DNA from: Bacilli bacterium | GTDB lineage: Bacteria; Bacillota_I; Bacilli_A; RF39; UBA660 | Reading direction: 5' to 3' | Length of the DNA: 64,000 nt | Assembly: GCA_051893155.1 (NCBI GenBank) | Contig: JBJFGY010000017.1 | Span: 1,677-65,676 of the forward strand | Shown here: in pieces, positions 19,623-48,642 of the stretch | How the letters are laid out: each line of letters starts with the position of its first letter | Position numbering within the stretch: the first letter of the stretch is position 1 | Translations under genes and position numbers: made by a program | Notes under the pieces: model-generated | Databases searched by the model: none | What the model saw: the letters and a program-made list of their open reading frames with translations, nothing else | Told to the model about the DNA's origin: nothing

Positions 19623-20984
19623 ATGTTTGAAAATAAAAAAATTCATATGATTGGTATTGGTGGTATATCAATGAGTGGTATTGCTGAAATTTTGCTTTCT
19701 TTTAATTGCAAAATAACAGGTTATGATGCTATGAAAACAGATATAACTAATCATTTAATCGAAATAGGTGTTCCTGTTTATGATAAATGTAATATCTTAA
19801 ATGTTAAAAATGCCGATATTATAATTTATACTGCCGCAATTCACGATGATAATGAAGAATTAAAATATGCTAAAAATAATCATAAAAAAGTTTATGAAAG
19901 AAGCAATTTTTTAGGTTTACTTATGAAAGAATATGAAAATGTTTTATGTATAAGTGGAACTCATGGAAAAAGCACGACAACTGGAATGGTAAGCAATATA
20001 TTTTTGAAAGCGAATTTAAATCCGACAATTATGATTGGAGCTATACTTCCTTCAATTAATAGTAATAATAAAGTTGGAAGTAAAAAATATTTTATTGCCG
20101 AAAGTTGTGAATATGTTGATAGTTTTCTAGAATTTTTTCCAACAAGTGAAATTATCTTAGATATTGATGATGATCATTTAGATTATTTTAAAAACATTGA
20201 TGGAATTATTTCTTCATTTAATAAATTTGCAAATAAATTAAATAATAATGGAAATTTAGTAATTAATAATGATGATTTAAATACATTAAAAGCCACTAAT
20301 AATATAAATAATAAAATTACTTATGGTATAGAAAATAATTCAAATTATATGGCTAAAAACATTGTTTTTGATTCACTTGGTCATCCAACTTATGAACTAT
20401 TTATTGATAACCAAAGTCAAGGCCTAGTTTCATTAAATGTTACAGGTATTCATAATGTTTATAACTCACTTGCCGCTATTGCATTAAGTAATATATATAT
20501 TAAAGATTTAAATATTATAAAAGAAGGATTACTTTCTTTTACTGGAGTTGGACGACGTTTTGAATATATTGGAAAATATAAAAATGTAAGTGTTTATGAT
20601 GATTATGCACACCACCCAAGTGAAATAAAAACAACATTAGACTCTGTTAAAAAAACTAAACATAATAAAAGTTATGCCATATTTCAATCTCACACTTATT
20701 CAAGAACATATGAACATTTAACTGAATTTGCAGATATCTTAAAAAATTTTGATAATGTTATAATAGCTCCTATATATCCTGCTAGAGAAACAAATATATT
20801 TAATGTTAAAGAAGAACAATTAGTAGATTTAATTAAAAAAGAAAATAAAAATGTTTGGTATATAGACTCTTTTGATAAAATTATTGATTTTATTAAAGAA
20901 AATGTTCAAGATAATGATTTAGTTATAACAATAGGTGCCGGACCAATTAATGAAGTTGCTAAAAAGTTAGTAATGGAGGGATAA
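19623..20984 (+). CDS. murC: UDP-N-acetylmuramate--L-alanine ligase
   Basis: IHMIGIGGISMSGIAEIL and GTHGKSTTTGM: a Mur ligase P-loop with the MurC-type N-terminus. Confidence 0.9.
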   Translation: MFENKKIHMIGIGGISMSGIAEILLSFNCKITGYDAMKTDITNHLIEIGVPVYDKCNILNVKNADIIIYTAAIHDDNEELKYAKNNHKKVYERSNFLGLLMKEYENVLCISGTHGKSTTTGMVSNIFLKANLNPTIMIGAILPSINSNNKVGSKKYFIAESCEYVDSFLEFFPTSEIILDIDDDHLDYFKNIDGIISSFNKFANKLNNNGNLVINNDDLNTLKATNNINNKITYGIENNSNYMAKNIVFDSLGHPTYELFIDNQSQGLVSLNVTGIHNVYNSLAAIALSNIYIKDLNIIKEGLLSFTGVGRRFEYIGKYKNVSVYDDYAHHPSEIKTTLDSVKKTKHNKSYAIFQSHTYSRTYEHLTEFADILKNFDNVIIAPIYPARETNIFNVKEEQLVDLIKKENKNVWYIDSFDKIIDFIKENVQDNDLVITIGAGPINEVAKKLVMEG

Positions 20985-31018: not shown

Positions 31019-31675
31019 TTATTTTAACCTTAATCTTTTTAACCTACTACCATTTTCATAAAAATTTTCATACTTTTCTTTTACATCTAATGGTAACTTA
31101 TCTATTAAAGTTAGTTTAATTAAAGATTTAAGTTTATCATAATATTTTTTTTCATTAATTTGTTTTGAATTTAATTCTTTTTCATTTATTAAATTTTCTA
31201 ATTTATATAATAATTCAAATTTTGTTTTTAAATCAATATTAGGTGTATTATCAATTTGTATTGATAAACTATTAATCTTTTCATCATAATTAAAAGTATC
31301 TTGAATATTTGGATTAAATATTTTTTCTATAGCACTTTGATTACCATTAAGTAAACTATTAATAACATATACAATTTTAGGAAAATAATAAATATCGTAT
31401 GAATAATGATATATATCTTCTGGAAAAGAGTAAAAATCATTATACTCTCTTACTCCTATTTTTTCCATATGAATATTTTTAAAATAAGAATCATTAAAAT
31501 AACATTTTCCAATCATTTCTTGAGCAACACGAACTTGAAAAATATCATCATATTCAACATGAACAATTCTACTACATTTAAATTTAATTTCTTCAAGTAA
31601 ATTTTGAATTATTTTTTCATCAAAAGATATTTGATATTTTTCTATACATTCATCACCATTTTTATAATATAACAT
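31019..31675 (-). CDS. hypothetical protein
   Basis: 218-aa ORF, Y/F-rich, with no recognisable motif. Confidence 0.35.
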   Translation of the reverse strand: MLYYKNGDECIEKYQISFDEKIIQNLLEEIKFKCSRIVHVEYDDIFQVRVAQEMIGKCYFNDSYFKNIHMEKIGVREYNDFYSFPEDIYHYSYDIYYFPKIVYVINSLLNGNQSAIEKIFNPNIQDTFNYDEKINSLSIQIDNTPNIDLKTKFELLYKLENLINEKELNSKQINEKKYYDKLKSLIKLTLIDKLPLDVKEKYENFYENGSRLKRLRLK

Positions 31676-31758: not shown

Positions 31759-32316
31759 TTAAATTTTATAAAGTTTTGTTCTTTTTTTAGTTACATAGTA
31801 TACGCCAGCACCAATAACTAAACCAGTTGCAATAATAATCATTGGAAGACTTGCACCTGTTTCAGGATTTGATGTACCTTGTGAACCACCATTGATAACT
31901 TCAATACTACAATCTTCTGTTGTATTTACAGGAACATTAACAACAATAGTTCCTATTTGAAAACTATTTCCAGTTGCTGTAGAACCATTTTTATCAAATT
32001 GACAAGTAATAAGCATTCTTCCTTCTGAATCTGTTCCATTATTAGTTGTTGTAGCAACAAACTCACCAAAATCTCCACATGTAGCAGAAGTAATAGCTTT
32101 ACCTAATCTAAATTTAACAATCTTTTGTGTAATAACATGATTTTCTGTATTATTAGTTAAACTTACACTTATACTATAAGTTTTCTTGTCAACACCATTA
32201 GTAGTTTCAGTACTTATTGGTGAACTTGAAACTGTAAGACTTTCCTCATAAGCATTAACCAATAAAGGCAAACAAAATACTCCCAAAACTAGTAAAAAAC
32301 TAAAAAACTTTTTCAT
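31759..32316 (-). CDS. cell-wall-anchored surface protein with an NPETG sorting signal (predicted class B sortase substrate)
   Basis: Signal peptide LLVNA-YEE. The C-terminus reads SNPETG, a hydrophobic stretch, then KKRTKLYKI, which is a classic tripartite sorting signal. Confidence 0.6.
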   Translation of the reverse strand: MKKFFSFLLVLGVFCLPLLVNAYEESLTVSSSPISTETTNGVDKKTYSISVSLTNNTENHVITQKIVKFRLGKAITSATCGDFGEFVATTTNNGTDSEGRMLITCQFDKNGSTATGNSFQIGTIVVNVPVNTTEDCSIEVINGGSQGTSNPETGASLPMIIIATGLVIGAGVYYVTKKRTKLYKI

Positions 32317-32433
32317 CCATCAACTCTCCTATCTTTATTATGACCTAATTATATCATAAAATTCAAAAAAACAATATATTTTTTAAAAATTTCTATTAAA
32401 AAATGTCAATTTGTGTTATCATAATTAATATAG

Positions 32434-33993
32434 GTGGATATAGTGAAGATATTAATTAAAATAAAAAACAATAGATTACAATTTATTAATAAGAAAAAAT
32501 TAAATACTGAATATAAAAATATGCTTAATACGAATGTAATTAATAATAATGAGTTAGTATTTAGTGATGAATATATATTATTAAATCAAAAAATTGTTAT
32601 AACTTTTTTAAATGAACTTATTAAAACATATTCTATAAATACTTTATCTTTTCAAAATATTGAAGTATTTACATTAATTTATAAATTAATAGTTAAAATA
32701 AAAAACATAGATTCAATATATATGGAATCTGATGAAATAATGAGTTATAAATTATGTGAAAAAATAAATAAATTAACTAATATAAAATATATTAGCTTTG
32801 CATACATACCAGTCTATATGTTTGAAATGCTTGATAAAAATGGTATTATTCCTGAATCAAGAAATGAAATACTATTTACATCTAATTTTATGGAAACTAA
32901 TGATTTAAAAACTTATTCTGCCATATTTTATAAAAATAGTATTTTATTAGAATTTCCATTATCTAATGAAGATATAGAAGATTTTGATACATTTTGTAAT
33001 ATAAATAGACATTTAAAAATAATTCATGTTAATAAAATTAATAAATATTTTCTAGAACTTGTACTTAATACTTTAATTAATAATAAGCAAAGAAATATTA
33101 AAATTGTTTTACATGGGGATGAACATGACCAAGAAGTTATTGAATATCTTAAAAAAAATAATAAAATCATTAAGAAAAAATATAGAATTTCTTTTAAATT
33201 AAAATATTCTAAAAAATACATTGAAGAAAATCTTGCTAGTGAAACAAATAATACAATATTAAGAACTTGTGGTTTAATTATTTTTGCAATTGTAATTTTT
33301 TCATTTATTTATGTTTTTTATGATAATTATAAATCAATGATGAAAGTAAGTAAAATTCAAAATGAAGTTGTAAAGTTTATTAATGCAACAGATACTAAAG
33401 ATATTGAAACGAATACTGCTTCAAATGGTCTTCCAATTAAAAATAATTATATTTACTCTTTAAAAGAAATAAATTCTGATGTTGTTGCTTGGCTTAAAGT
33501 TAATAATACAAATATTGACTACCCAATAGTTCAAACACTTGATAATGAATATTACCTTAAATATAATCTTTATCATGAAAAAGACGAAAATGGTTGGTTA
33601 TTTATGGATTATGATAATAATACTATAAAAATAGATGATAATATAATTATTTATGGACATAATAGATATTTAAATGGTGTTATGTTTGGAACACTTAATA
33701 AAACACTTTATAAAAATTGGTATACAAATGAAGAAAATCAAATTATAAAATTTGATACTCTTTATGGATCATACCAATATAAGGTATTCTCAATATATAT
33801 TATTCCTACTACTAGTGATTATTTAGAAACTAATTTTGATAATAATGAAGATAAAATAAATTTTTTAAATATGCTTAAAAAAAGAAGCATTTATGATTTT
33901 AACATTCAACTTGATGAAAATAGTAAAATTATTACACTATCAACTTGTCAAAGTGATACAACTAGACTTGTTCTTCATGCAGTCTTAGTTTAA
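32434..33993 (+). CDS. srtB: class B sortase with a roughly 290-aa N-terminal extension of unknown function
   Basis: The C-terminal 230 aa carry DVVAWLKVNNTNIDYPIVQTLDNEYYL, IIIYGHN, TLSTCQSD and TTRLVLHAV (SrtB H/C/R triad). They are preceded by a TM (LRTCGLIIFAIVIFSFIYVFY). No in-frame start lies near the TM, so the N-terminal domain appears fused. Confidence 0.65.
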   Translation: MDIVKILIKIKNNRLQFINKKKLNTEYKNMLNTNVINNNELVFSDEYILLNQKIVITFLNELIKTYSINTLSFQNIEVFTLIYKLIVKIKNIDSIYMESDEIMSYKLCEKINKLTNIKYISFAYIPVYMFEMLDKNGIIPESRNEILFTSNFMETNDLKTYSAIFYKNSILLEFPLSNEDIEDFDTFCNINRHLKIIHVNKINKYFLELVLNTLINNKQRNIKIVLHGDEHDQEVIEYLKKNNKIIKKKYRISFKLKYSKKYIEENLASETNNTILRTCGLIIFAIVIFSFIYVFYDNYKSMMKVSKIQNEVVKFINATDTKDIETNTASNGLPIKNNYIYSLKEINSDVVAWLKVNNTNIDYPIVQTLDNEYYLKYNLYHEKDENGWLFMDYDNNTIKIDDNIIIYGHNRYLNGVMFGTLNKTLYKNWYTNEENQIIKFDTLYGSYQYKVFSIYIIPTTSDYLETNFDNNEDKINFLNMLKKRSIYDFNIQLDENSKIITLSTCQSDTTRLVLHAVLV

Positions 33994-35038
33994 TAATCTC
34001 ATTATTTTTTAAAATTCTTTCATCATTACTTAAGGATATTGCCTTATTACTATAAAGAAGTGCAATATCCTTTTTATTTAAGTAAAAAGCACATATACTA
34101 TATAAATCATATATAAATCCATTCCAAGCAAAATCTTCATTTATATAACTTATACTTTTTTCTTTAATTAAAAATGCTTTATCTAAAAGTTCAATAGCTT
34201 TTTGATATTCTTTTTGATTATAATATAGGTTTGCAAGTTCAACATAACTTTCTCTTAAATAAGGTGCTTCTCTAATTGCACTTTCATACCAAAATATTGC
34301 TTCTTCTGGATATTTTAATCCCAAATAACATCTAGCCATAAATCTTTTCGATGCACATCTTTCATCTTTCCAAGTCGCATTTTTACAATTTAAATGTTTA
34401 TGAAATGTTTTTATCGCTTTTGTATATTTATGATAATACATATACTCTCTTCCCAAATAATGTAAATTTCGATCATCTTCGGGATCCTCTTTTACACTTA
34501 ATTCTAAAAGTGATAAATAATTACTTCTTGATATTTTATAATCCTGATAATGATTTAAAGTAATACCTTCAATTAAAATTTCTTTTTCTTCATTTAAAGG
34601 TTTTAATACTTCATGAACGGGATGAGTCCATATATAATCTTTGGTGTGTATTTTATTTAAATAAAATATAGTTGCAGGATTACCAAATTCATCAAAAGAC
34701 CAATTATATAAATACCTTACTCTAGTACTACCTTTTATATAATTTTCTTCTAATACTTTTCGCCAACCTTTTTCAAAACGTTCATCTATATCAGTACACA
34801 CATATAAATCGTATTTCTTTTTTATCATTTTAAGTGATTTATTTCTTGCTACATCAAACCTAAAAGGATTTATTACTTCTTTTTTTACATGAACACCTAA
34901 AGACTTTAATAATTTAACACTTTTATCAGTACTTCCTGTATCAAGAACATAAATATCATCGGCTTCACTCATACTTTCTTGCCATAAAGCAATATTTTTT
35001 TCTTCATTTTTGCATATTGCATAAACACATATTTTCAT
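33962..35038 (-). CDS. family 2 glycosyltransferase fused to TPR repeats
   Basis: N-terminus ICVYAICKNEE...YVLDTGSTD... is GT2-like with a DxD-type region. The C-terminal half has several TPR-like YYxxG/A repeats. Convergent 32-nt overlap with srtB. Confidence 0.6.
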   Translation of the reverse strand: MKICVYAICKNEEKNIALWQESMSEADDIYVLDTGSTDKSVKLLKSLGVHVKKEVINPFRFDVARNKSLKMIKKKYDLYVCTDIDERFEKGWRKVLEENYIKGSTRVRYLYNWSFDEFGNPATIFYLNKIHTKDYIWTHPVHEVLKPLNEEKEILIEGITLNHYQDYKISRSNYLSLLELSVKEDPEDDRNLHYLGREYMYYHKYTKAIKTFHKHLNCKNATWKDERCASKRFMARCYLGLKYPEEAIFWYESAIREAPYLRESYVELANLYYNQKEYQKAIELLDKAFLIKEKSISYINEDFAWNGFIYDLYSICAFYLNKKDIALLYSNKAISLSNDERILKNNEIIKLRLHEEQV

Positions 35039-35179: not shown

Positions 35180-35971
35180 TTAATAAGAGCCTTTTAAATA
35201 CTCTAAACTTAACATATATTCTATATTATCAGTCTTGTAATATTTAAGTTTAAAATATGCGCCATATTTTTCTTTAGTAATATCATTATCTAATTCATAA
35301 CAATTATTTTTTTTCTCTAAAAGACAATCATCATCATATAAATGTAAAATTAAATAGTAGTTATTACCATTTTTATATTTATCTACTGCTTTTAATACAA
35401 TAGGTGACCAACCTCCGCCAACATAATTAGGGTCATAATTATAAAAATCTTGATTATAAAACTCTTCATTACATATAAATTTTTCTTTACCAAAGAAAAT
35501 ACTAGCTAATGATTTTAATTTTTTTAAATCACAAACATAATTATTATCATCGTCACTTTGTTGGCAATAATCATAAGATGGATATTTTGCATTATTTAAA
35601 GTTCCATTCAATTGAAATTCAACATATGCACTAGCAACTTTAATTTTAGTACAATCATTTAAAAATAAATCATCACCAATTTTAGAATCACCAGGAATAA
35701 AAGGAAACATATTAATACTATTTTCAACATTAAATATTGCTAATCTAGTATTTATTTCTTTTCTTTCTTCATCATTAAGTATTAATTTTGTATAACCACT
35801 TTCAATAGGAAATGTTACTATATTATTTGTATTATTTTCATTACTAATTAGTTTGTTATTAGAATTTATTATTTTATCATAAATAATATATCCTCCAAGA
35901 ATCAATATTAAAGCACTAAAAATACTAACAATAGCATATAAAATTTTAATTTTTTTCTGATTTTCCAACAC
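35180..35971 (-). CDS. hypothetical N-anchored extracytoplasmic protein
   Basis: 263 aa. N-terminal TM, then a Cys-containing soluble domain. Confidence 0.4.
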   Translation of the reverse strand: MLENQKKIKILYAIVSIFSALILILGGYIIYDKIINSNNKLISNENNTNNIVTFPIESGYTKLILNDEERKEINTRLAIFNVENSINMFPFIPGDSKIGDDLFLNDCTKIKVASAYVEFQLNGTLNNAKYPSYDYCQQSDDDNNYVCDLKKLKSLASIFFGKEKFICNEEFYNQDFYNYDPNYVGGGWSPIVLKAVDKYKNGNNYYLILHLYDDDCLLEKKNNCYELDNDITKEKYGAYFKLKYYKTDNIEYMLSLEYLKGSY

Positions 35972-36025: not shown

Positions 36026-37090
36026 TTAAAAAGAACAATTATATTTTAATATATTTCGATAATAATTACTTATTTCATTATAATTTGTTGGAAAAGATGA
36101 ATTATATTCTTTATCTAAGATATCACTTGTTAAAAATGAAAGTAATGAAATTTGTTTATTTTCTTTATCAATTAAAGCATATCCTTCTTCACCATTAATT
36201 GTTATTTTTCCATCATTAATTTTTTTAATAATATTATCATATTCTGTATCATTATCATAAGTATTTACTTTTATCCTAACTGAAACATTCATACTATTTT
36301 TGTTATTATCAAAAACAAATTTGTCAATAATACTACCATCAGGACTTGTACAATTAAAAATCATTTTTGGTTCATTTTCAATAACATAGACAAAAGATGT
36401 AATGGTATTATCATTATTATTTTCATCAACAGCCTTAATATTTATGTTTTTAAAACCAACACTAGTTAAAGAATTTAATGCATTTTCTTTATTTTCAAAT
36501 GAAAAAGTATAATTATTAGGTGAAGATATAAGTCTTTCAACATTTATACTATTTCCTAAAACTAAATATGTAAATTCATTTTTTAAATTTAGAACTACTT
36601 TCTCAGTAATAACTTGATCATCATCTGTTTTTTCCTTTACAACTACTTTTGCAGAATATTTTGAATTACCACACGTAACATAATAATCATATACTCCGAC
36701 TTTAGAAGTATCAACATTTTTTGTGTTCAAACTACATTTAGAAATATCTAAATTGTCAAAATTACCATAATCATCCATGCTTTCAGGTAAAGAATCACCA
36801 ACTTTTATTGTAATATTATTTAAAGTAAAAGCTGCAGTTGTATTATTTTGATTTTTATTTTTTGCCATATTTAAATAATAATAAACACCATAAGCAACAC
36901 CACCCATTAATGCAATAATTAAAATTACAAATAATAATTTTTTAATAAAAGATTCTTTGTTCTTAGAATTTTTATTATCATTATTTTCTTTTTTTAAATT
37001 ATTGTCTTCTACTTTTTGTTGCGGTACTGGTGCATCTAATGTTTCAATTACTTCTACTAATGTTGGATCAGTTCCAATTTCATTTTTCAC
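36026..37090 (-). CDS. hypothetical bitopic membrane protein
   Basis: 354 aa. A roughly 60-aa N-terminal cytoplasmic segment, one TM, and a large extracytoplasmic domain. Confidence 0.4.
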   Translation of the reverse strand: MKNEIGTDPTLVEVIETLDAPVPQQKVEDNNLKKENNDNKNSKNKESFIKKLLFVILIIALMGGVAYGVYYYLNMAKNKNQNNTTAAFTLNNITIKVGDSLPESMDDYGNFDNLDISKCSLNTKNVDTSKVGVYDYYVTCGNSKYSAKVVVKEKTDDDQVITEKVVLNLKNEFTYLVLGNSINVERLISSPNNYTFSFENKENALNSLTSVGFKNINIKAVDENNNDNTITSFVYVIENEPKMIFNCTSPDGSIIDKFVFDNNKNSMNVSVRIKVNTYDNDTEYDNIIKKINDGKITINGEEGYALIDKENKQISLLSFLTSDILDKEYNSSFPTNYNEISNYYRNILKYNCSF

Positions 37091-37128: not shown

Positions 37129-38445
37129 TTAAATATTTTTTGCAAGATTTTTAAATTCATTCCCACGAGTTTCAAATTTATCATATTGATCCCAACTAGC
37201 ACTTGCAGGTGATAGTAATACTACTCCACTATTTAAATTATCTTTTTTAATCATTTCCATTGCAACTTTAAGTGTATAACATTTTTCAGAGTTTATATTT
37301 AGTTCTTTAGCATAATTAAATACTTCATCAGTAACCTGCCCAATCGCATAAATTTTTTTAACATGTTTCATATAATTATCCAACTCATGAAAATTTTGAT
37401 TTCTTTGCATTCCACCAAGAATAAGATAAACATCTTCTTTAAAAGAATTTAATGCCGTAATAGTGGATGTAGGATTAGTGGCTTTAGAATCATTATAAAA
37501 TTTTAAATTATCTTTTTGACAAACAAATTCTATTCTATGTTCAACTCCATTAAAACTCCTAAAAAAATCTTTTACAATATCTTTATCTATTCCAAATTCA
37601 TTTATAACTAAAAGTGCAGCCATAATATTTTCATAATTATGTTGACCTTTAATTTTAATATCATTTATATTAATAATTTTTTCATCTTTTATAAATATAA
37701 AATCATCTTTTATAAATGCATCTTTACCATTAAAATATTCTTTTTTAGATTTAATATCTTTAGTTATATCCATACTATCTAAATTATTTTGATTAATTAT
37801 AGCAAGATCTTTTTCTGTATGATGATTAAATATATTATGTTTTACTTTTTTATAATTTTCATAATTTCCATGATAATCCAAATGAGTTTGACATAAATTT
37901 GTAAGAACACTTATATCTGTTTTAAAATCTTTAAAGTTAATTAGTTGATGATCAGAAATTTCTAATAAAAGTACATCACCACTTTTTATTAATGGGATTA
38001 CTTCACTTAAAGGATAGCCAATATTTCCTCCTAAAACGACTGGAATATTCATTTTTTTTAATAATTCATAAATAATTGTCGTTGTTGTAGTTTTACCATT
38101 AGAACCTGTAACGCCAATTATTTTGATGTTTTTTGGAAGAAAGTGATATGCTACTTCCATTTCATTATAAATTTGTATATTTAATTTACTTGCTTCAATT
38201 AATAATTCATGAAATGGCATTACTCCTGGGTTTTTAATAACCATATCAAAAGACGAATTAAATATATCTAGAGGTTTATCAGTTTTAATAAATTTTACAC
38301 CAAGGCTTTCTAATTCGTGAACTTTATCTTCATCTTGATCATTTTTATCAGTTATAACTATTTCATTATTTTTACAGAGTAATTTTGCAACATTATAACC
38401 ACTTCTAGCCATACCTAAAATAAATATTTTTTTATTTTCAAACAT
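37129..38445 (-). CDS. murD: UDP-N-acetylmuramoylalanine--D-glutamate ligase
   Basis: IFILGMARSG, GVTGSNGKTTTT, Mur ligase family. 438 aa. Confidence 0.9.
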   Translation of the reverse strand: MFENKKIFILGMARSGYNVAKLLCKNNEIVITDKNDQDEDKVHELESLGVKFIKTDKPLDIFNSSFDMVIKNPGVMPFHELLIEASKLNIQIYNEMEVAYHFLPKNIKIIGVTGSNGKTTTTTIIYELLKKMNIPVVLGGNIGYPLSEVIPLIKSGDVLLLEISDHQLINFKDFKTDISVLTNLCQTHLDYHGNYENYKKVKHNIFNHHTEKDLAIINQNNLDSMDITKDIKSKKEYFNGKDAFIKDDFIFIKDEKIININDIKIKGQHNYENIMAALLVINEFGIDKDIVKDFFRSFNGVEHRIEFVCQKDNLKFYNDSKATNPTSTITALNSFKEDVYLILGGMQRNQNFHELDNYMKHVKKIYAIGQVTDEVFNYAKELNINSEKCYTLKVAMEMIKKDNLNSGVVLLSPASASWDQYDKFETRGNEFKNLAKNI

Positions 38446-40784: not shown

Positions 40785-42752
40785 TTATTTTTTATATTTA
40801 TAAGCAATATTATAATAATCATAATCAATTATATATTGACTCAAATTAATCCTATTATTAACTAATTGCTTTATGTTTGCTACATAATCTTCATCAACAC
40901 TTTGGCCATTATTTAATACAAATTCACTAGTTGCTGCAAAATATTTTCCTTTATCAGTTACCCATGAACGATTATCAAACATTGCAAGGCCATCTTCTGT
41001 TGATAATATATCTTTTCCAATAATTAGTCTTGAATCATATTCAATACCAAATAAATTATATATTGTTGGTAAAACATCTAATTGACTTCCAACTTTGTTA
41101 ATTTCTACTTTATCCATAGCACTATTATATAAAATAAATTTACTACGATTAATTTCAATTTTATCGTCTTTTTCATAACTAGATACTTCATTAACTTGTT
41201 TAACAGTTAATTCATATGGATAATGATCACCTACTAAAGCAATAACTGTATCTTCTAAAATACCTTCCTTTTCAAGTTTATTAATTAAATCTTCTAAAGC
41301 TTTATCAAGTTCCATTTGTGCTGCCAAATATGCTTTTACTGGATTTGAATATGGTAAATTAAATGCATCAATTTCTTCTTTATGTTTTTTACTCATACTA
41401 TTACCTTCAAAAGAATAACCAGCATGACCAGATACTGTTGCATAAAATACCATAAATGGTTTATCACTATTTACATAATCGGAAAAAGTTGAATCAATCA
41501 TTTCCACATCACTTTGAGGCCAAATACCACTACACTTAATTTTAGTTTCAAGGCCATTAAAACATGCTATAAAATTATCAAATCCTAAAGATTTTAAATA
41601 TACATTTCTATCCTGAAAATTATATGAATTATTATGATAAGCAAAAGTATTATATCCTTCATTTTTAAATATATTTGCAATTCCCATAGGATATGTATTA
41701 TCACCACTCCTAAATTTTTTTAATGATGAAAAATTTGCATAAAGTCCGGTTAATTCTTGAAATTCCCCACCAATTGTACTATATATAGTCGGTGTATAAA
41801 AATTATTAAATACAAATCCATTATTAACAAGTTTATAAAGTGTTGGTGTAATATCTTTATCAACAGCAATCTCATTAAAACTTTCAGCCATAAATAAAAT
41901 TAAATTTTTTCCTTTAAATTTTCCTGTATATTCATTTTGATATGAACCTATATCATTTTTAAAATAATTTGACATCATAACAATTTTATCATTATTTGAA
42001 TAATCATTAATAATACCATCAAAATCAATATCTAATGTATTAGAATCATAATTTATATCAATAATTGTCTTATTATCATTACCATGTTCAATATTTATTT
42101 TTTCTTCAAAGCCAAAAATAAACCGATATGTATCAACCCAAAAAGTATTAATTATTCCAACTTTTTCAATATTAAGAGAAGGATTATTAACTTCATAAAA
42201 TAATTCATAAGGGCTATAACTTTCATCCTTTTTTATATTTAAACTATATATATAACCTATAGAAAATAAAATTAAAAAACATATACTAATTGCTATTTTT
42301 ATATTATTAGTTTTTTTAAACCGAATTTTTTTTCTAATTATAATAACTAAAATTAAAGGAATAGATAAAAGTATTATTCCTGGTAATCTTTTTATTGTTT
42401 CAATTACTGCTTTACCCAAAAAAGATGTAACTTGATCTGCTATTTGTAATATTGAAAAAGATATATAAAAATCAAAAAAATCTTTTACAACATATTGAGC
42501 AACAAACCAAATAGTCCAAAATATAAAAGTAAAATAAAATATAAATCTATTAATTTTTTCTTTAAAAATTCTTGTTAAAATATACATTAATATGCTATAA
42601 CATAAAATAAATATAATCATATTAATGCTTGATGTTATAAAAATTGTCTTATGTAATAAAATTCGATAAATAAATTCCATATAAATAAAACTTAAGAAAA
42701 AAATTACAAATGTACTATATCTTTTATATTCTTTCATATTCCACCTATACAT
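40785..42752 (-). CDS. LTA synthase family protein (membrane-anchored sulfatase-fold; LtaS-like)
   Basis: About 5 N-terminal TM segments, then an extracytoplasmic alkaline-phosphatase/sulfatase-type domain (NLILFMAESF...TPT). Confidence 0.65.
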   Translation of the reverse strand: MYRWNMKEYKRYSTFVIFFLSFIYMEFIYRILLHKTIFITSSINMIIFILCYSILMYILTRIFKEKINRFIFYFTFIFWTIWFVAQYVVKDFFDFYISFSILQIADQVTSFLGKAVIETIKRLPGIILLSIPLILVIIIRKKIRFKKTNNIKIAISICFLILFSIGYIYSLNIKKDESYSPYELFYEVNNPSLNIEKVGIINTFWVDTYRFIFGFEEKINIEHGNDNKTIIDINYDSNTLDIDFDGIINDYSNNDKIVMMSNYFKNDIGSYQNEYTGKFKGKNLILFMAESFNEIAVDKDITPTLYKLVNNGFVFNNFYTPTIYSTIGGEFQELTGLYANFSSLKKFRSGDNTYPMGIANIFKNEGYNTFAYHNNSYNFQDRNVYLKSLGFDNFIACFNGLETKIKCSGIWPQSDVEMIDSTFSDYVNSDKPFMVFYATVSGHAGYSFEGNSMSKKHKEEIDAFNLPYSNPVKAYLAAQMELDKALEDLINKLEKEGILEDTVIALVGDHYPYELTVKQVNEVSSYEKDDKIEINRSKFILYNSAMDKVEINKVGSQLDVLPTIYNLFGIEYDSRLIIGKDILSTEDGLAMFDNRSWVTDKGKYFAATSEFVLNNGQSVDEDYVANIKQLVNNRINLSQYIIDYDYYNIAYKYKK

Positions 42753-46193: not shown

Positions 46194-46601
46194 CTAAAAT
46201 ATAATTTTAAATATTTTTTTTATTATTTTTTCTTTATCAAAATAAAATGTTATTTTCACAACTTCATTTTCTTTTAAATTTATATTTGTTTTTAATGTAT
46301 AAATTTGATAGTTTTGGTAATTTTCATTTAATAAATCTGAAATATTATCAATCTTATAACTATATTCATCATTTTTTATTTTCATCTTATTATTTAAAGT
46401 TATTTTGTCAGAGTTTTCTACTAAAATGTTAACTTTAATAAAGCCATTTTCATAAATACCATAAGTATTAAAATTACTATATGATTCTAAAAAAAATGAA
46501 AGAATAATAAAAATAATAAATATACCTAAAAACATAATTAAAAATAAATTATTTTTATATTTAATATTTTGCAAATAATAATAACTACTTTTCATATTCA
46601 C
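46194..46601 (-). CDS. small N-anchored membrane protein (possible minimal or truncated HlyD/LcnD-like accessory, or an immunity protein)
   Basis: 135 aa with a single TM (LFLIMFLGIFIIFIILSFFL) and a roughly 95-aa extracytoplasmic part. It overlaps the PCAT stop by 17 nt and ends 12 nt before peptide 1. Confidence 0.45.
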   Translation of the reverse strand: MNMKSSYYYLQNIKYKNNLFLIMFLGIFIIFIILSFFLESYSNFNTYGIYENGFIKVNILVENSDKITLNNKMKIKNDEYSYKIDNISDLLNENYQNYQIYTLKTNINLKENEVVKITFYFDKEKIIKKIFKIIF

Positions 46602-48642
46602 CTTTTAAAGTAATAACTCGATCAAACAAATTATCTTGTTTTTTATGTGATATATAAATTATTGTTTTTTCTGGATATTCTCTAATAATATTTTTAATTA
46701 TTGTTTTTTCCATAAAATAATCTATTTCACTAAGTGCTTCATCTAAAATTAATATTTTACTATTTCTTAATAAAGCCCTTGCTAAAATAATTCTCTGTTT
46801 TTCACCTCCTGATATATTAATCGAATCATTACTTATTCCAAAATCATATCTTAATTTTCTTTTATTAACAATTAAATCGATTAAACAAATTTTACAAACT
46901 TTATCAAAATTACTTTCATCTTTATAATTAAATAAAATATTATTTTTTATTGTATCAGTATATAAATTTTCTTTTTGACCAACATAAACAATATTATTTT
47001 TTATTGTGTTAAGACTATAATCATTGATATTTATACCATTTATATAAATATTACCATTATTTAAAGAAAATTCTCTAGTAAGTAGTTTACATAAACTACT
47101 TTTACCACTTCCACTTTTTCCTTTAATCATGATTTTTTCATTAGTTTTAACTACTTCACTAAAATCTTTTATAATGTAATTATAATTATCATAAGCAAAG
47201 CTTACATTTTCAAAAATAATATCGCCATTAATTAGTTTTTTACTTTCACCAACTTTTTCCTCTTTTATATTTATAAAATCACATATTTTATTAAAACTTG
47301 CTCGTAAAAAATTATATTTTGGTATTAGTGATACTATATTTTTAATGGGGTCTATAAAATAAGATAAAAATGTATTATAAATAACTAAACTAATTAAAGA
47401 AAATTTATTATTATAAATTAAATAAAATCCATAAGTATTAATTAAAAAAAATGATAGTTCATAAAAAATATTTTTAATTGTTTCAAAAAAATTTATATTT
47501 ATATTAAAAGAATAATTATCAAAAATCAAATCACATATTTTATTTTCAATTTTATTTAAAATATTTTCAGTTTCATTTAAATTTTTTATACTATTTATCA
47601 TATTAATATTTTCTAATAAAATAGTATTAACTTCTGTTTGATATTCAATATTTTTTCGTATTCTTTTATAAAAATATGGACTAATTAAAATAGAAATTAT
47701 TATATAAATTACAACAAATATAATTAATATAAATGTTATTTTAATATTTAAATTTAAAAGAACTATAAAAGCAGCAAGGCAAATCATTAAGTCTAAAAAT
47801 GCAAAAATAAATATTTGTGAAAATAATTCTTTAATACTACTTATTTCGTTTACTCGTGACATTATTTCACCACTGCTTCTTGATTCAATAACATTTAAAG
47901 GAAGATGAAATAAATGATTAATAAATTCCTTAAAAACACTTATATCAATATTTTTATTAATATGATTTTCATAGTATTTTTTTAAATAATCAAAAATTAT
48001 TTTAAAAATAATACAAACTAAAAATATAAAAATTATTATTTTAATTGTATTTTGAAATGCATTGTTTGAAATAAATTCATTCATTATTTTAAAATACATT
48101 CCAGATATTACAGTAATAATTGTTAATAAAAAACTACATAATAATGCATTAATACATAATTTTTTATTTTTTATTAAAATTTTTATAAAAAGACTATAAA
48201 TACTATTTTCTTTTTCTAATAAAATAATTTTATCTTTAGGAGTAAATTGTAAAATAACGCCAGTAAATATTTTATTAAAATCATCTTTAGTCATTTTTAT
48301 CTTGCCTTTACTAGGATTCATTAAAATATAATTTGAATTTTTAATACCATATAAGCACATAAAATGCGTAAGACCATTATCATATTTCACGTGTACAATC
48401 GCAGGCAAAATAATGTTATCTAATTCTTTATCTTCAAATTTTTTAGCTATAGCATCAAATCCATACTTTTCCGCGGCTTTAAGTAAATGATAGACACTAA
48501 CCCCTTGCATTGATGTATAAGTATCAAGTCTAATCTTTTCTATTGGAACATAACCATTATAAAATCTTATAATAGATTGAAGACAACAAGCACCACAATC
48601 TTTTACATCTCTTTGACAAACTATTACTATTTTATTTTTCAT
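46585..48642 (-). CDS. peptidase-containing ABC transporter (C39 peptidase + 6TM + ABC ATPase), bacteriocin/peptide exporter
   Basis: N-terminal C39 motif VCQRDVKDCGACCLQSI with the conserved His (THFMCLYG). Walker A GKSGSGKSS, signature ISGGEKQRIILARAL, Walker B ILILDEALS. Confidence 0.85.
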   Translation of the reverse strand: MKNKIVIVCQRDVKDCGACCLQSIIRFYNGYVPIEKIRLDTYTSMQGVSVYHLLKAAEKYGFDAIAKKFEDKELDNIILPAIVHVKYDNGLTHFMCLYGIKNSNYILMNPSKGKIKMTKDDFNKIFTGVILQFTPKDKIILLEKENSIYSLFIKILIKNKKLCINALLCSFLLTIITVISGMYFKIMNEFISNNAFQNTIKIIIFIFLVCIIFKIIFDYLKKYYENHINKNIDISVFKEFINHLFHLPLNVIESRSSGEIMSRVNEISSIKELFSQIFIFAFLDLMICLAAFIVLLNLNIKITFILIIFVVIYIIISILISPYFYKRIRKNIEYQTEVNTILLENINMINSIKNLNETENILNKIENKICDLIFDNYSFNININFFETIKNIFYELSFFLINTYGFYLIYNNKFSLISLVIYNTFLSYFIDPIKNIVSLIPKYNFLRASFNKICDFINIKEEKVGESKKLINGDIIFENVSFAYDNYNYIIKDFSEVVKTNEKIMIKGKSGSGKSSLCKLLTREFSLNNGNIYINGININDYSLNTIKNNIVYVGQKENLYTDTIKNNILFNYKDESNFDKVCKICLIDLIVNKRKLRYDFGISNDSINISGGEKQRIILARALLRNSKILILDEALSEIDYFMEKTIIKNIIREYPEKTIIYISHKKQDNLFDRVITLKGEYEK

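Follow-up and report, generated by a model that had tools for sequence, protein, structure and literature searches.

Sortases are familiar from textbooks and are in wide use for protein ligation. Substrate specificity is generally ascribed to the extracellular domain of the enzyme, which reads a pentapeptide, the cytoplasmic tail of the substrate being regarded as a generic stop-transfer charge. Here, we analyzed a divergent gene pair on a 64-kb stretch of a Bacilli bacterium contig (JBJFGY010000017.1, positions 1,677 to 65,676; hereafter, the window), which encodes a class B sortase (SrtB) and a secreted protein of 185 amino acids (aa) bearing an NPETG sorting signal; both open reading frames (ORFs) are present as claimed in an earlier note on this DNA. 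In uncultured, walled gut Bacilli of low GC content (23.4% in the window), the two genes probably constitute a conserved module for anchoring a protein to the cell wall. What makes the locus interesting is the long form of its class B sortase, with a cytoplasmic domain not described before, and a sequence-specific substrate tail, rather than the NPETG motif. Three features go beyond the earlier note: the 270-aa cytoplasmic N-terminal domain of the sortase (hereafter, the N-domain), the conserved tail of the substrate, and the cell-wall genes of the window.

The closest solved catalytic relative is SrtB of Clostridioides difficile (CD2718), an enzyme of the same class whose motif likewise ends in PxTG and which has no link to haem uptake. 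Its cleavage of (S/P)PxTG has been shown to occur between T and G (PMC4155245). At ~225 aa, it is preceded by no more than a short N-terminal anchor, and its substrates, about seven in number and scattered, have simply basic tails, ending for example in ...KIKRN or KRRKMKKS (PMC4155245). In the window, by contrast, the sortase includes a cytoplasmic domain of 270 aa, and its substrate is gene-linked and has a tail conserved in sequence. The SrtB-IsdC systems of Staphylococcus aureus and Bacillus anthracis (NPQTN/NPKTG), whose enzymes are among the top Foldseek hits, share with the window pair a single gene-linked substrate and an Asn-Pro-x-Thr motif (PMC11987632). These systems, however, belong to iron-regulated haem-uptake operons with a NEAT-domain substrate, and a long cytoplasmic domain is not described there; the window pair instead adjoins lysS and comprises an uncharacterised small substrate, probably a beta-sandwich. 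No NEAT or isd genes were found around the pair among the window ORFs or in the relatives' loci examined. SrtB enzymes have been described as targeting "variations of NPXTG or NPQTN" (PMC11987632), in agreement with the earlier note, which regarded NPxTG motifs as SrtB targets.

A class B sortase with an intact catalytic domain

The neighbour of the NPETG protein had been proposed to be a class B sortase with a full catalytic domain, and profile, structural and sequence comparisons all agreed with this assignment. The protein scored 171.6 bits with TIGR03064 ("class B sortase"; MEROPS C60B), which has a cut-off of 153.75, and this match spans residues 275-510 of the ORF as returned by the ORF finder (519 aa). 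Pfam Sortase matched with an E-value of 1.2e-13. An AlphaFold2 (AF2) model of the sortase, built with 108 homologues, had a predicted local distance difference test score (pLDDT) of 86. When this model was compared with the PDB using Foldseek, ranks 1-19 were all SrtB structures, with E-values down to 3e-20 and target-normalised template modelling scores (TM-scores) of 0.74-0.90; they included the enzymes of S. aureus, B. anthracis, C. difficile, C. perfringens and Listeria, as well as streptococcal pilus SrtBs (ranks 16-19, including Spy0129 and the pneumococcal enzyme). By sequence, the closest solved enzyme was C. difficile SrtB (phmmer E-value 2.7e-35, 43-44% identity, aligned end to end), with which the motifs YGHN (His406), TLSTC (Cys502) and R..V.H (Arg508) align. 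The His and Cys residues are invariant among the 108 homologues, and the Arg is present in at least 90% of them. The enzyme is accordingly intact in its catalytic residues, and transpeptidase activity on its cognate motif is predicted from sequence.

The overall architecture departs from that of typical class B enzymes, which have ~220-250 aa and a short cytoplasmic stub, in that a folded 270-aa domain precedes the membrane anchor; at 516 aa, the protein has about double the usual length. This extra N-domain is a departure in architecture and not a failure of the class B catalytic definition.

The sorting signal and its conserved tail

Four elements can be read in the window protein, namely a signal peptide, a pentapeptide ending in TG, a hydrophobic segment and a basic tail. 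The earlier note had called for a search of the genome for other NPxTG proteins. In a six-frame scan of the window for the pentapeptide, hydrophobic segment and basic tail, this signal was the sole credible cell-wall sorting signal found.

To describe the signal statistically, 60 non-identical orthologous substrates were aligned on TG. The TG was invariant (60/60), whereas only 38/60 sequences had the N and 40/60 the P; at the third position, any of Q, E, A, P, K, D, S, N, G or T was seen. The most frequent pentapeptides were NPQTG (9 orthologues), NPETG (7) and NKQTG (5), followed by NPATG, NPKTG, EVETG and ETKTG (3 each) and by NPPTG, NPDTG, QPSTG and TPDTG (2 each); TVSTG, TVNTG, EVSTG, DVQTG, TTPTG, NSDTG and others occurred in 1 orthologue each. 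The suggestion that NPETG is an uncharacterised variant did not survive this comparison, because the third position is free in the orthologues, N and P vary as well, the model NF033846 already exists, and variation of the NPXTG motif of SrtB enzymes has been published.

Downstream of TG, a P at position +4 is conserved in 47/60 sequences and an aromatic residue, Y, at position -13 from the C-terminus in 45/60. The tail itself follows the consensus K-K-N-x-K-[MLFI]-Y-K-[IV]-COOH, with K(-5) in 57/60, Y(-3) in 52/60 and I/V(-1) in 58/60. In terms of information content, these positions reach 3.96, 3.52 and 3.29 bits, respectively, compared with 2.58 bits for the N and 2.79 bits for the P of the pentapeptide. 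In 58/60 sequences, TG and the C-terminus lie exactly 31 aa apart. Because the codons of the tail vary synonymously, the constraint on the tail acts on the protein. A profile search with the 42-residue sorting signal for other proteins with the same tail returned three gene fragments only and was uninformative.

Existing anchor models recognise part of the family: TIGR01167 matches 19/59 members and NF033846 16/59 (best E-value 4.3e-5), and some orthologues pass the TIGR01167 cut-off (e.g. that of locus L023 at 22.0). Proteins of the NF033846 model ("Rumino_NPXTG") carry the same kind of C-terminal NPxTG anchor, but the window protein lies below the cut-off of this model.

The pentapeptide variants also bear on a different reading, in which the sortase is a pilus polymerase and the small protein a minimal pilin. 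Class B sortases such as Streptococcus pyogenes Spy0129 and the Streptococcus pneumoniae type II pilus SrtB join pilin subunits, and xVPTG-type motifs occur in streptococcal pilins; the EVETG, EVSTG or DVQTG of some orthologous substrates are xVxTG-like variants that resemble them, and both pilus enzymes share the SrtB fold and appear among the structural neighbours described above. We nevertheless regard this reading as very improbable. The orthologue alignment shows no conserved lysine in the mature region, nearly invariant lysines being found only in the signal peptide and the tail, which disfavours the small protein as a pilin. Its mature domain has ~130 aa and no CnaB/CnaA or pilin Pfam match, and the locus contains no second pilin, housekeeping sortase or SipA-like peptidase. 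Among solved structures, SrtBs that do not build pili are closest in sequence and E-value, with 1e-35 for C. difficile SrtB against 1e-18 to 1e-19 for the pilus-type enzymes.

Pairing of sortase and substrate across gut Bacilli

The pairing was surveyed with one genome per GTDB species, which gave 590 relatives, and the best 80 of these 590 were assessed. The divergent pair was present in 58/80 and absent in 18/80, and 4/80 were not assessable because of contig ends. It was found across sortase identities from 93% down to ~37%; the 18 genomes without the pair mostly have the most distant sortases (identity <= ~41%). In the same 58/80 species-level genomes of low-GC uncultured gut Bacilli, the pair adjoins lysS. 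On all four homologue contigs inspected at 50-64% identity (4/4), a secreted protein of 178-186 aa with a sorting signal is encoded divergently, upstream of the sortase and downstream of lysS. With the divergent arrangement repeated in so many species genomes (58/80), the pairing is not a matter of chance, and a dedicated sortase-substrate module is well supported by this comparison of sequences. Other than lysS and the substrate, neighbouring genes vary, and no consistently linked partner gene was detected among the loci examined. The relatives are recorded under titles such as "Mycoplasma sp. CAG:472", "CAG:776" and "Coprobacillus sp. CAG:605" or as uncultured Tenericutes or Bacilli, and they originate from human, rabbit, goat, deer and mouse guts.

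The most distant long-sortase genomes (L071-L087, e.g. L084:8449-10966) have no YK[IV]-tailed neighbour. Instead, another operon lies about 1 kb downstream; it encodes a sortase of the short kind (225-232 aa, TLITCTKGD) together with a ~600-aa VPKTG protein, the tail of which is KNGKKC or KNGKEN, without the Y-K-I motif.

Cell wall context and the proposed anchoring reaction

The window contains two Mur-ligase genes and a gene for an LtaS-like sulfatase-family membrane protein (19623-20984 (+), 37129-38445 (-) and 40785-42752 (-)). Judged by these genes, the organism makes peptidoglycan, despite the "Mycoplasma" and "Tenericutes" labels of its relatives, and probably also lipoteichoic acid. 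A survey of RF39-type lineages found that they keep most peptidoglycan genes (PMC10868615). Taken together, the Mur ligases, the LtaS-like enzyme and this survey indicate that the organism has a wall for anchoring. The earlier note's description of the locus as a self-contained anchoring module is supported by the intact triad, the SrtB fold, the complete sorting signal, the synteny in dozens of species and the peptidoglycan genes in the window.

In the proposed reaction, the substrate would be exported via Sec and its signal peptide removed, after which the C-terminal hydrophobic segment would hold it in the membrane with the basic tail inside the cell. The class B sortase would then cleave NPETG between T153 and G154 and, through a thioester with Cys502, move the ~130-residue domain onto a peptidoglycan precursor, resulting in covalent display on the wall. 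The gene structures, domain identities, catalytic triad, conserved pairing and wall-synthesis genes are results of the present analysis, and the chemistry is inferred from established sortase knowledge.

Several points weigh against this reading. Cleavage, nucleophile and wall linkage are all assigned by analogy; the sorting signal of the window protein scores below the curated cut-offs (15.3 against 23.5 for NF033846 and 14.1 against 15.9 for TIGR01167); and the scan for substrates covers 64 kb of the genome. The low scores against these hidden Markov models would also fit an alternative in which the C-terminal segment is only a membrane anchor, or in which the sortase hydrolyses and releases the protein, leaving it membrane-bound or secreted instead of wall-linked. 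In the same direction, one study reports disparate subcellular locations for some predicted C. difficile SrtB substrates (PMC5569036), and wall pathways are described as reduced in the lineages considered here (PMC10868615). A plain membrane anchor would, however, hardly explain why TG never varies and keeps its position, why P is conserved at +4, or why the protein is strictly co-inherited with an intact transpeptidase, and the Mur ligases and the LtaS-like enzyme are present. We therefore consider it improbable and retain covalent wall anchoring as the favoured reading.

The cytoplasmic N-domain and its possible relation to the substrate tail

Hydropathy identified one transmembrane helix in the sortase, flanked by a net charge of +4 before it and +1 after it, which corresponds to an N-in topology. 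Given these charges, and because the catalytic domain must be outside, residues 1-270 are assigned to the cytoplasm. Modelled alone with AF2, this N-domain reached a pLDDT of 90 and a predicted template modelling score of 0.78. The model consists of an N-terminal hairpin followed by nine beta-alpha units with a spacing of ~26 residues, and its last helix continues into the membrane helix. The strands follow a hydrophobic-x-x-hydrophobic-x-hydrophobic pattern (INTLSF, IDSIYM, IKYISF, LKIIHV, IKIVLH), as in leucine-rich repeats (LRRs). No Pfam family, LRR families included, matched the N-domain of the window protein or of 29 diverse members, and a Foldseek search of the PDB found no neighbour with a TM-score >0.30. 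The only match of the N-domain profile among PDB sequences was the LRR ectodomain of TMK1, a weak one (E-value 0.74).

In an exhaustive search of 1.84 billion representative proteins, the N-domain profile retrieved 229 clusters at 50% identity, in which the full-length members are all 507-565 aa long and sortase-fused. Hits of 280-300 aa were considered as stand-alone N-domain proteins and rejected, as those inspected end in or just after the transmembrane helix and are most likely contig-end fragments. On this profile search, the N-domain appears to be fused only to this sortase clade. The mean pairwise identity is 43% in the N-domain, 33% in the linker and 54% in the catalytic domain, and the alignments indicate that the N-domain is under purifying selection. 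A set of polar residues (D131, R140, E142, S147, N153, Y163, K164, D177, D180 and N188) is retained unchanged in almost every one of 33 diverse sequences. Literature searches returned no relevant sortase with a cytoplasmic, LRR-type or N-terminal-extension domain, and we know of no characterised sortase with a cytoplasmic domain of this kind.

With its last helix passing straight on into the transmembrane helix, the N-domain would sit against the inner leaflet, where, judging from the model, the 9-residue substrate tail could reach it. We tentatively consider it possible that the N-domain docks the tail (K-hydrophobic-Y-K-I/V-COOH) at the inner face of the membrane. A further step, which we put forward as speculation and consider rather doubtful, is a two-sided, ruler-like selection in which the catalytic domain would read x-x-x-T-G and the LRR-like N-domain would capture the tail exactly 31 residues away. 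To our knowledge, two-point, ruler-like substrate selection has not been described for any sortase. Recognition from both sides could explain how the pentapeptide drifts (NPETG, EVETG, NKQTG, ETKTG) with specificity kept.

Other observations speak against a link between the N-domain and the tail, and they fit a reading in which the module anchors its protein as proposed and the N-domain, unrelated to the tail, positions or regulates the sortase. The domain might then be a partner of the division or wall-synthesis machinery or of the Sec translocon, mediate sortase oligomerisation, or have an enzymatic or ligand-sensing role. The invariant residues of the N-domain are equally and fully kept in the 18 genomes without an adjacent YK[IV]-tailed substrate, and all of the residues listed above except Y163 would fit a catalytic or ligand site. 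The weak Foldseek matches (TM-score <=0.30) are a mixture of LRR proteins (NLRP7, NLRP3, RNase inhibitor, CARMIL) and TIM (triosephosphate isomerase) barrels, and the latter may point to an enzymatic role. Covariation between tail and N-domain, measured as mutual information, is unconvincing: it is marginal (P ~0.04, uncorrected and with phylogeny not controlled), and a similar trend for the post-TG residues makes the tail signal non-specific. For comparison, covariation between the pentapeptide and the catalytic domain is weak (P ~0.11, phylogeny again not controlled). What an unrelated N-domain does not account for is a 9-residue tail and an exact 31-residue spacing that are better conserved than the pentapeptide, when the tails of characterised substrates, such as those of C. 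difficile, are simply basic (PMC4155245). Nor is there a consistently linked partner gene, since neighbours beyond lysS and the substrate vary. We give this alternative substantial weight, though short of an even chance. Overall, tail docking is no more probable than a role of the N-domain in localisation, regulation or catalysis.

The mature domain of the substrate

The signal peptide of the substrate is conserved in the orthologue alignment with respect to its K-K start, hydrophobic core and A-x-A-like site, with K2, K3 and A22 nearly invariant. The mature region that follows has ~127-130 aa and is rich in Ser, Thr and Asn. An identical protein is on record as "MAG: hypothetical protein [Bacilli bacterium]" (P0121), and no Pfam family was assigned to any of the 59 substrate members or to the larger paralogues described below. 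When the family profile was compared with PDB sequences, weak matches to two Ruminococcus flavefaciens ScaB cohesin chains (E-value ~5e-4) and to YcnI (1.6e-3) were obtained. The mature domain is a probable beta-sandwich, possibly cohesin-like.

Sortase-anchored single-cohesin proteins are known from Ruminococcus (ScaE-type), and the window family resembles them in the kind of its C-terminal NPxTG anchor and in the weak ScaB match. Identity as a cohesin (PF00963) is not established: this match is weak, none of the 59 members gave a Pfam Cohesin hit, and a profile-sequence hhalign comparison gave a probability of 1.4%. No dockerin-like motif was seen in the DNA available. Matches to the NCBIfam models EF0750/EF2685 in 27/59 substrates were also discarded; they fall on the signal peptide or the anchor and lie below the cut-off.

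In three relatives (L027:3513-5090(-), L037:292-1599(-) and L046:3667-5097(-)), a second, larger substrate of 436-526 aa is encoded beside the first. It contains a 28-residue Cys-pair unit, CNPKC.[VF]...KYYD..GHEVDKDT[YF]D., repeated ~10 times as a stalk before NPQTG. One copy of this unit, which has no Pfam match, is present in orthologues of 220-290 aa and none in the 185-aa protein of the window. The second substrates of L027, L037 and L046 were not accepted as independent evidence for the tail, because they are paralogues of the first.

Gene layout and neighbouring genes

The features of the module are listed in Table 1. The start returned by the ORF finder, GTG 32434 (519-aa ORF), lies within the Shine-Dalgarno sequence AGGTGG (32432-32437), and homologues begin with MKILIKIK; the true start is therefore most likely GTG 32443 (MKILIKIK...), which gives the 516-aa protein. 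Both promoters are presumably located in the divergent intergenic region. A promoter and terminator scan gave fewer matches than in shuffled controls and was uninformative at 23% GC.

Table 1. Positions of the sortase-substrate module and its parts in the window.
Feature	Position	Strand	Basis
Sortase substrate gene, 185 aa	31759..32316	-	ORF and translation; 59 orthologues aligned
Signal peptide, aa 1-22, MKKFFSFLLVLGVFCLPLLVNA, predicted cleavage after VNA, before YE	32251..32316	-	Sequence reading
Sorting signal, aa 150-185 of substrate			
NPETG, aa 150-154, predicted cleavage T153/G154	31855..31869	-	Sequence scan and orthologue alignment
ASLP and hydrophobic membrane-spanning stretch	31789..31854	-	Scan and orthologue alignment
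Cytoplasmic tail KKRTKLYKI at C-terminus	31762..31788	-	Orthologue alignment
Divergent intergenic region, 126 bp, with both ribosome-binding sites: GGAGAG (substrate), AGGTGG (sortase)	32317..32442		Sequence reading
Long-form class B sortase gene, 516 aa	32443..33993	+	>100 full-length homologues of 510-560 aa, identity down to 50%
N-terminal cytoplasmic beta/alpha-repeat domain, aa 1-270, LRR-like	32443..33252	+	AF2 model, profile search
Single transmembrane helix, aa 271-293	33253..33321	+	Hydropathy scan, one peak
Extracellular helical linker, aa 294-335, least conserved part of sortase	33322..33447	+	Structure model; 33% mean pairwise identity
Class B sortase catalytic domain, aa ~336-516	33448..33990	+	TIGR03064, Foldseek, alignment
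Catalytic residues His406, Cys502, Arg508	33658-33660, 33946-33948, 33964-33966	+	

A gene for a glycosyltransferase family 2 and tetratricopeptide-repeat (TPR) protein (33962-35038 (-)) is convergent with the sortase gene, with which it shares 32 nucleotides at the sortase 3′ end. L001, L031 and L056 have a similar gene (351-366 aa) after the sortase, at the same position and on the same strand, whereas most other loci lack it. Three proteins flanking the module (35180-35971 (-), 36026-37090 (-) and 31019-31675 (-)) have no Pfam family, and 2/3 have a single N-terminal membrane anchor; in L005 and L007, unannotated genes in similar positions follow the sortase. Farther away, the window encodes an ABC (ATP-binding cassette) exporter with an N-terminal C39 peptidase domain (46585-48642 (-)), of the bacteriocin or double-glycine-peptide exporter type.

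Significance of the long sortase family

The long sortase family occurs widely among gut Bacilli of humans, rabbits and ruminants that are abundant but uncultured and have reduced genomes, and it combines a large conserved cytoplasmic domain with a sequence-specific substrate tail and a relaxed pentapeptide. Because it is kept in reduced genomes beside a housekeeping gene, the anchored protein is likely to be a major surface component of these organisms. Even if the N-domain and the tail are not linked, the N-domain would merit a name, being a family of 229 clusters at 50% identity for which no annotation exists. If they are linked, sortases of this type would select substrates by a principle that is new for these enzymes, and this might be exploited for orthogonal tagging.

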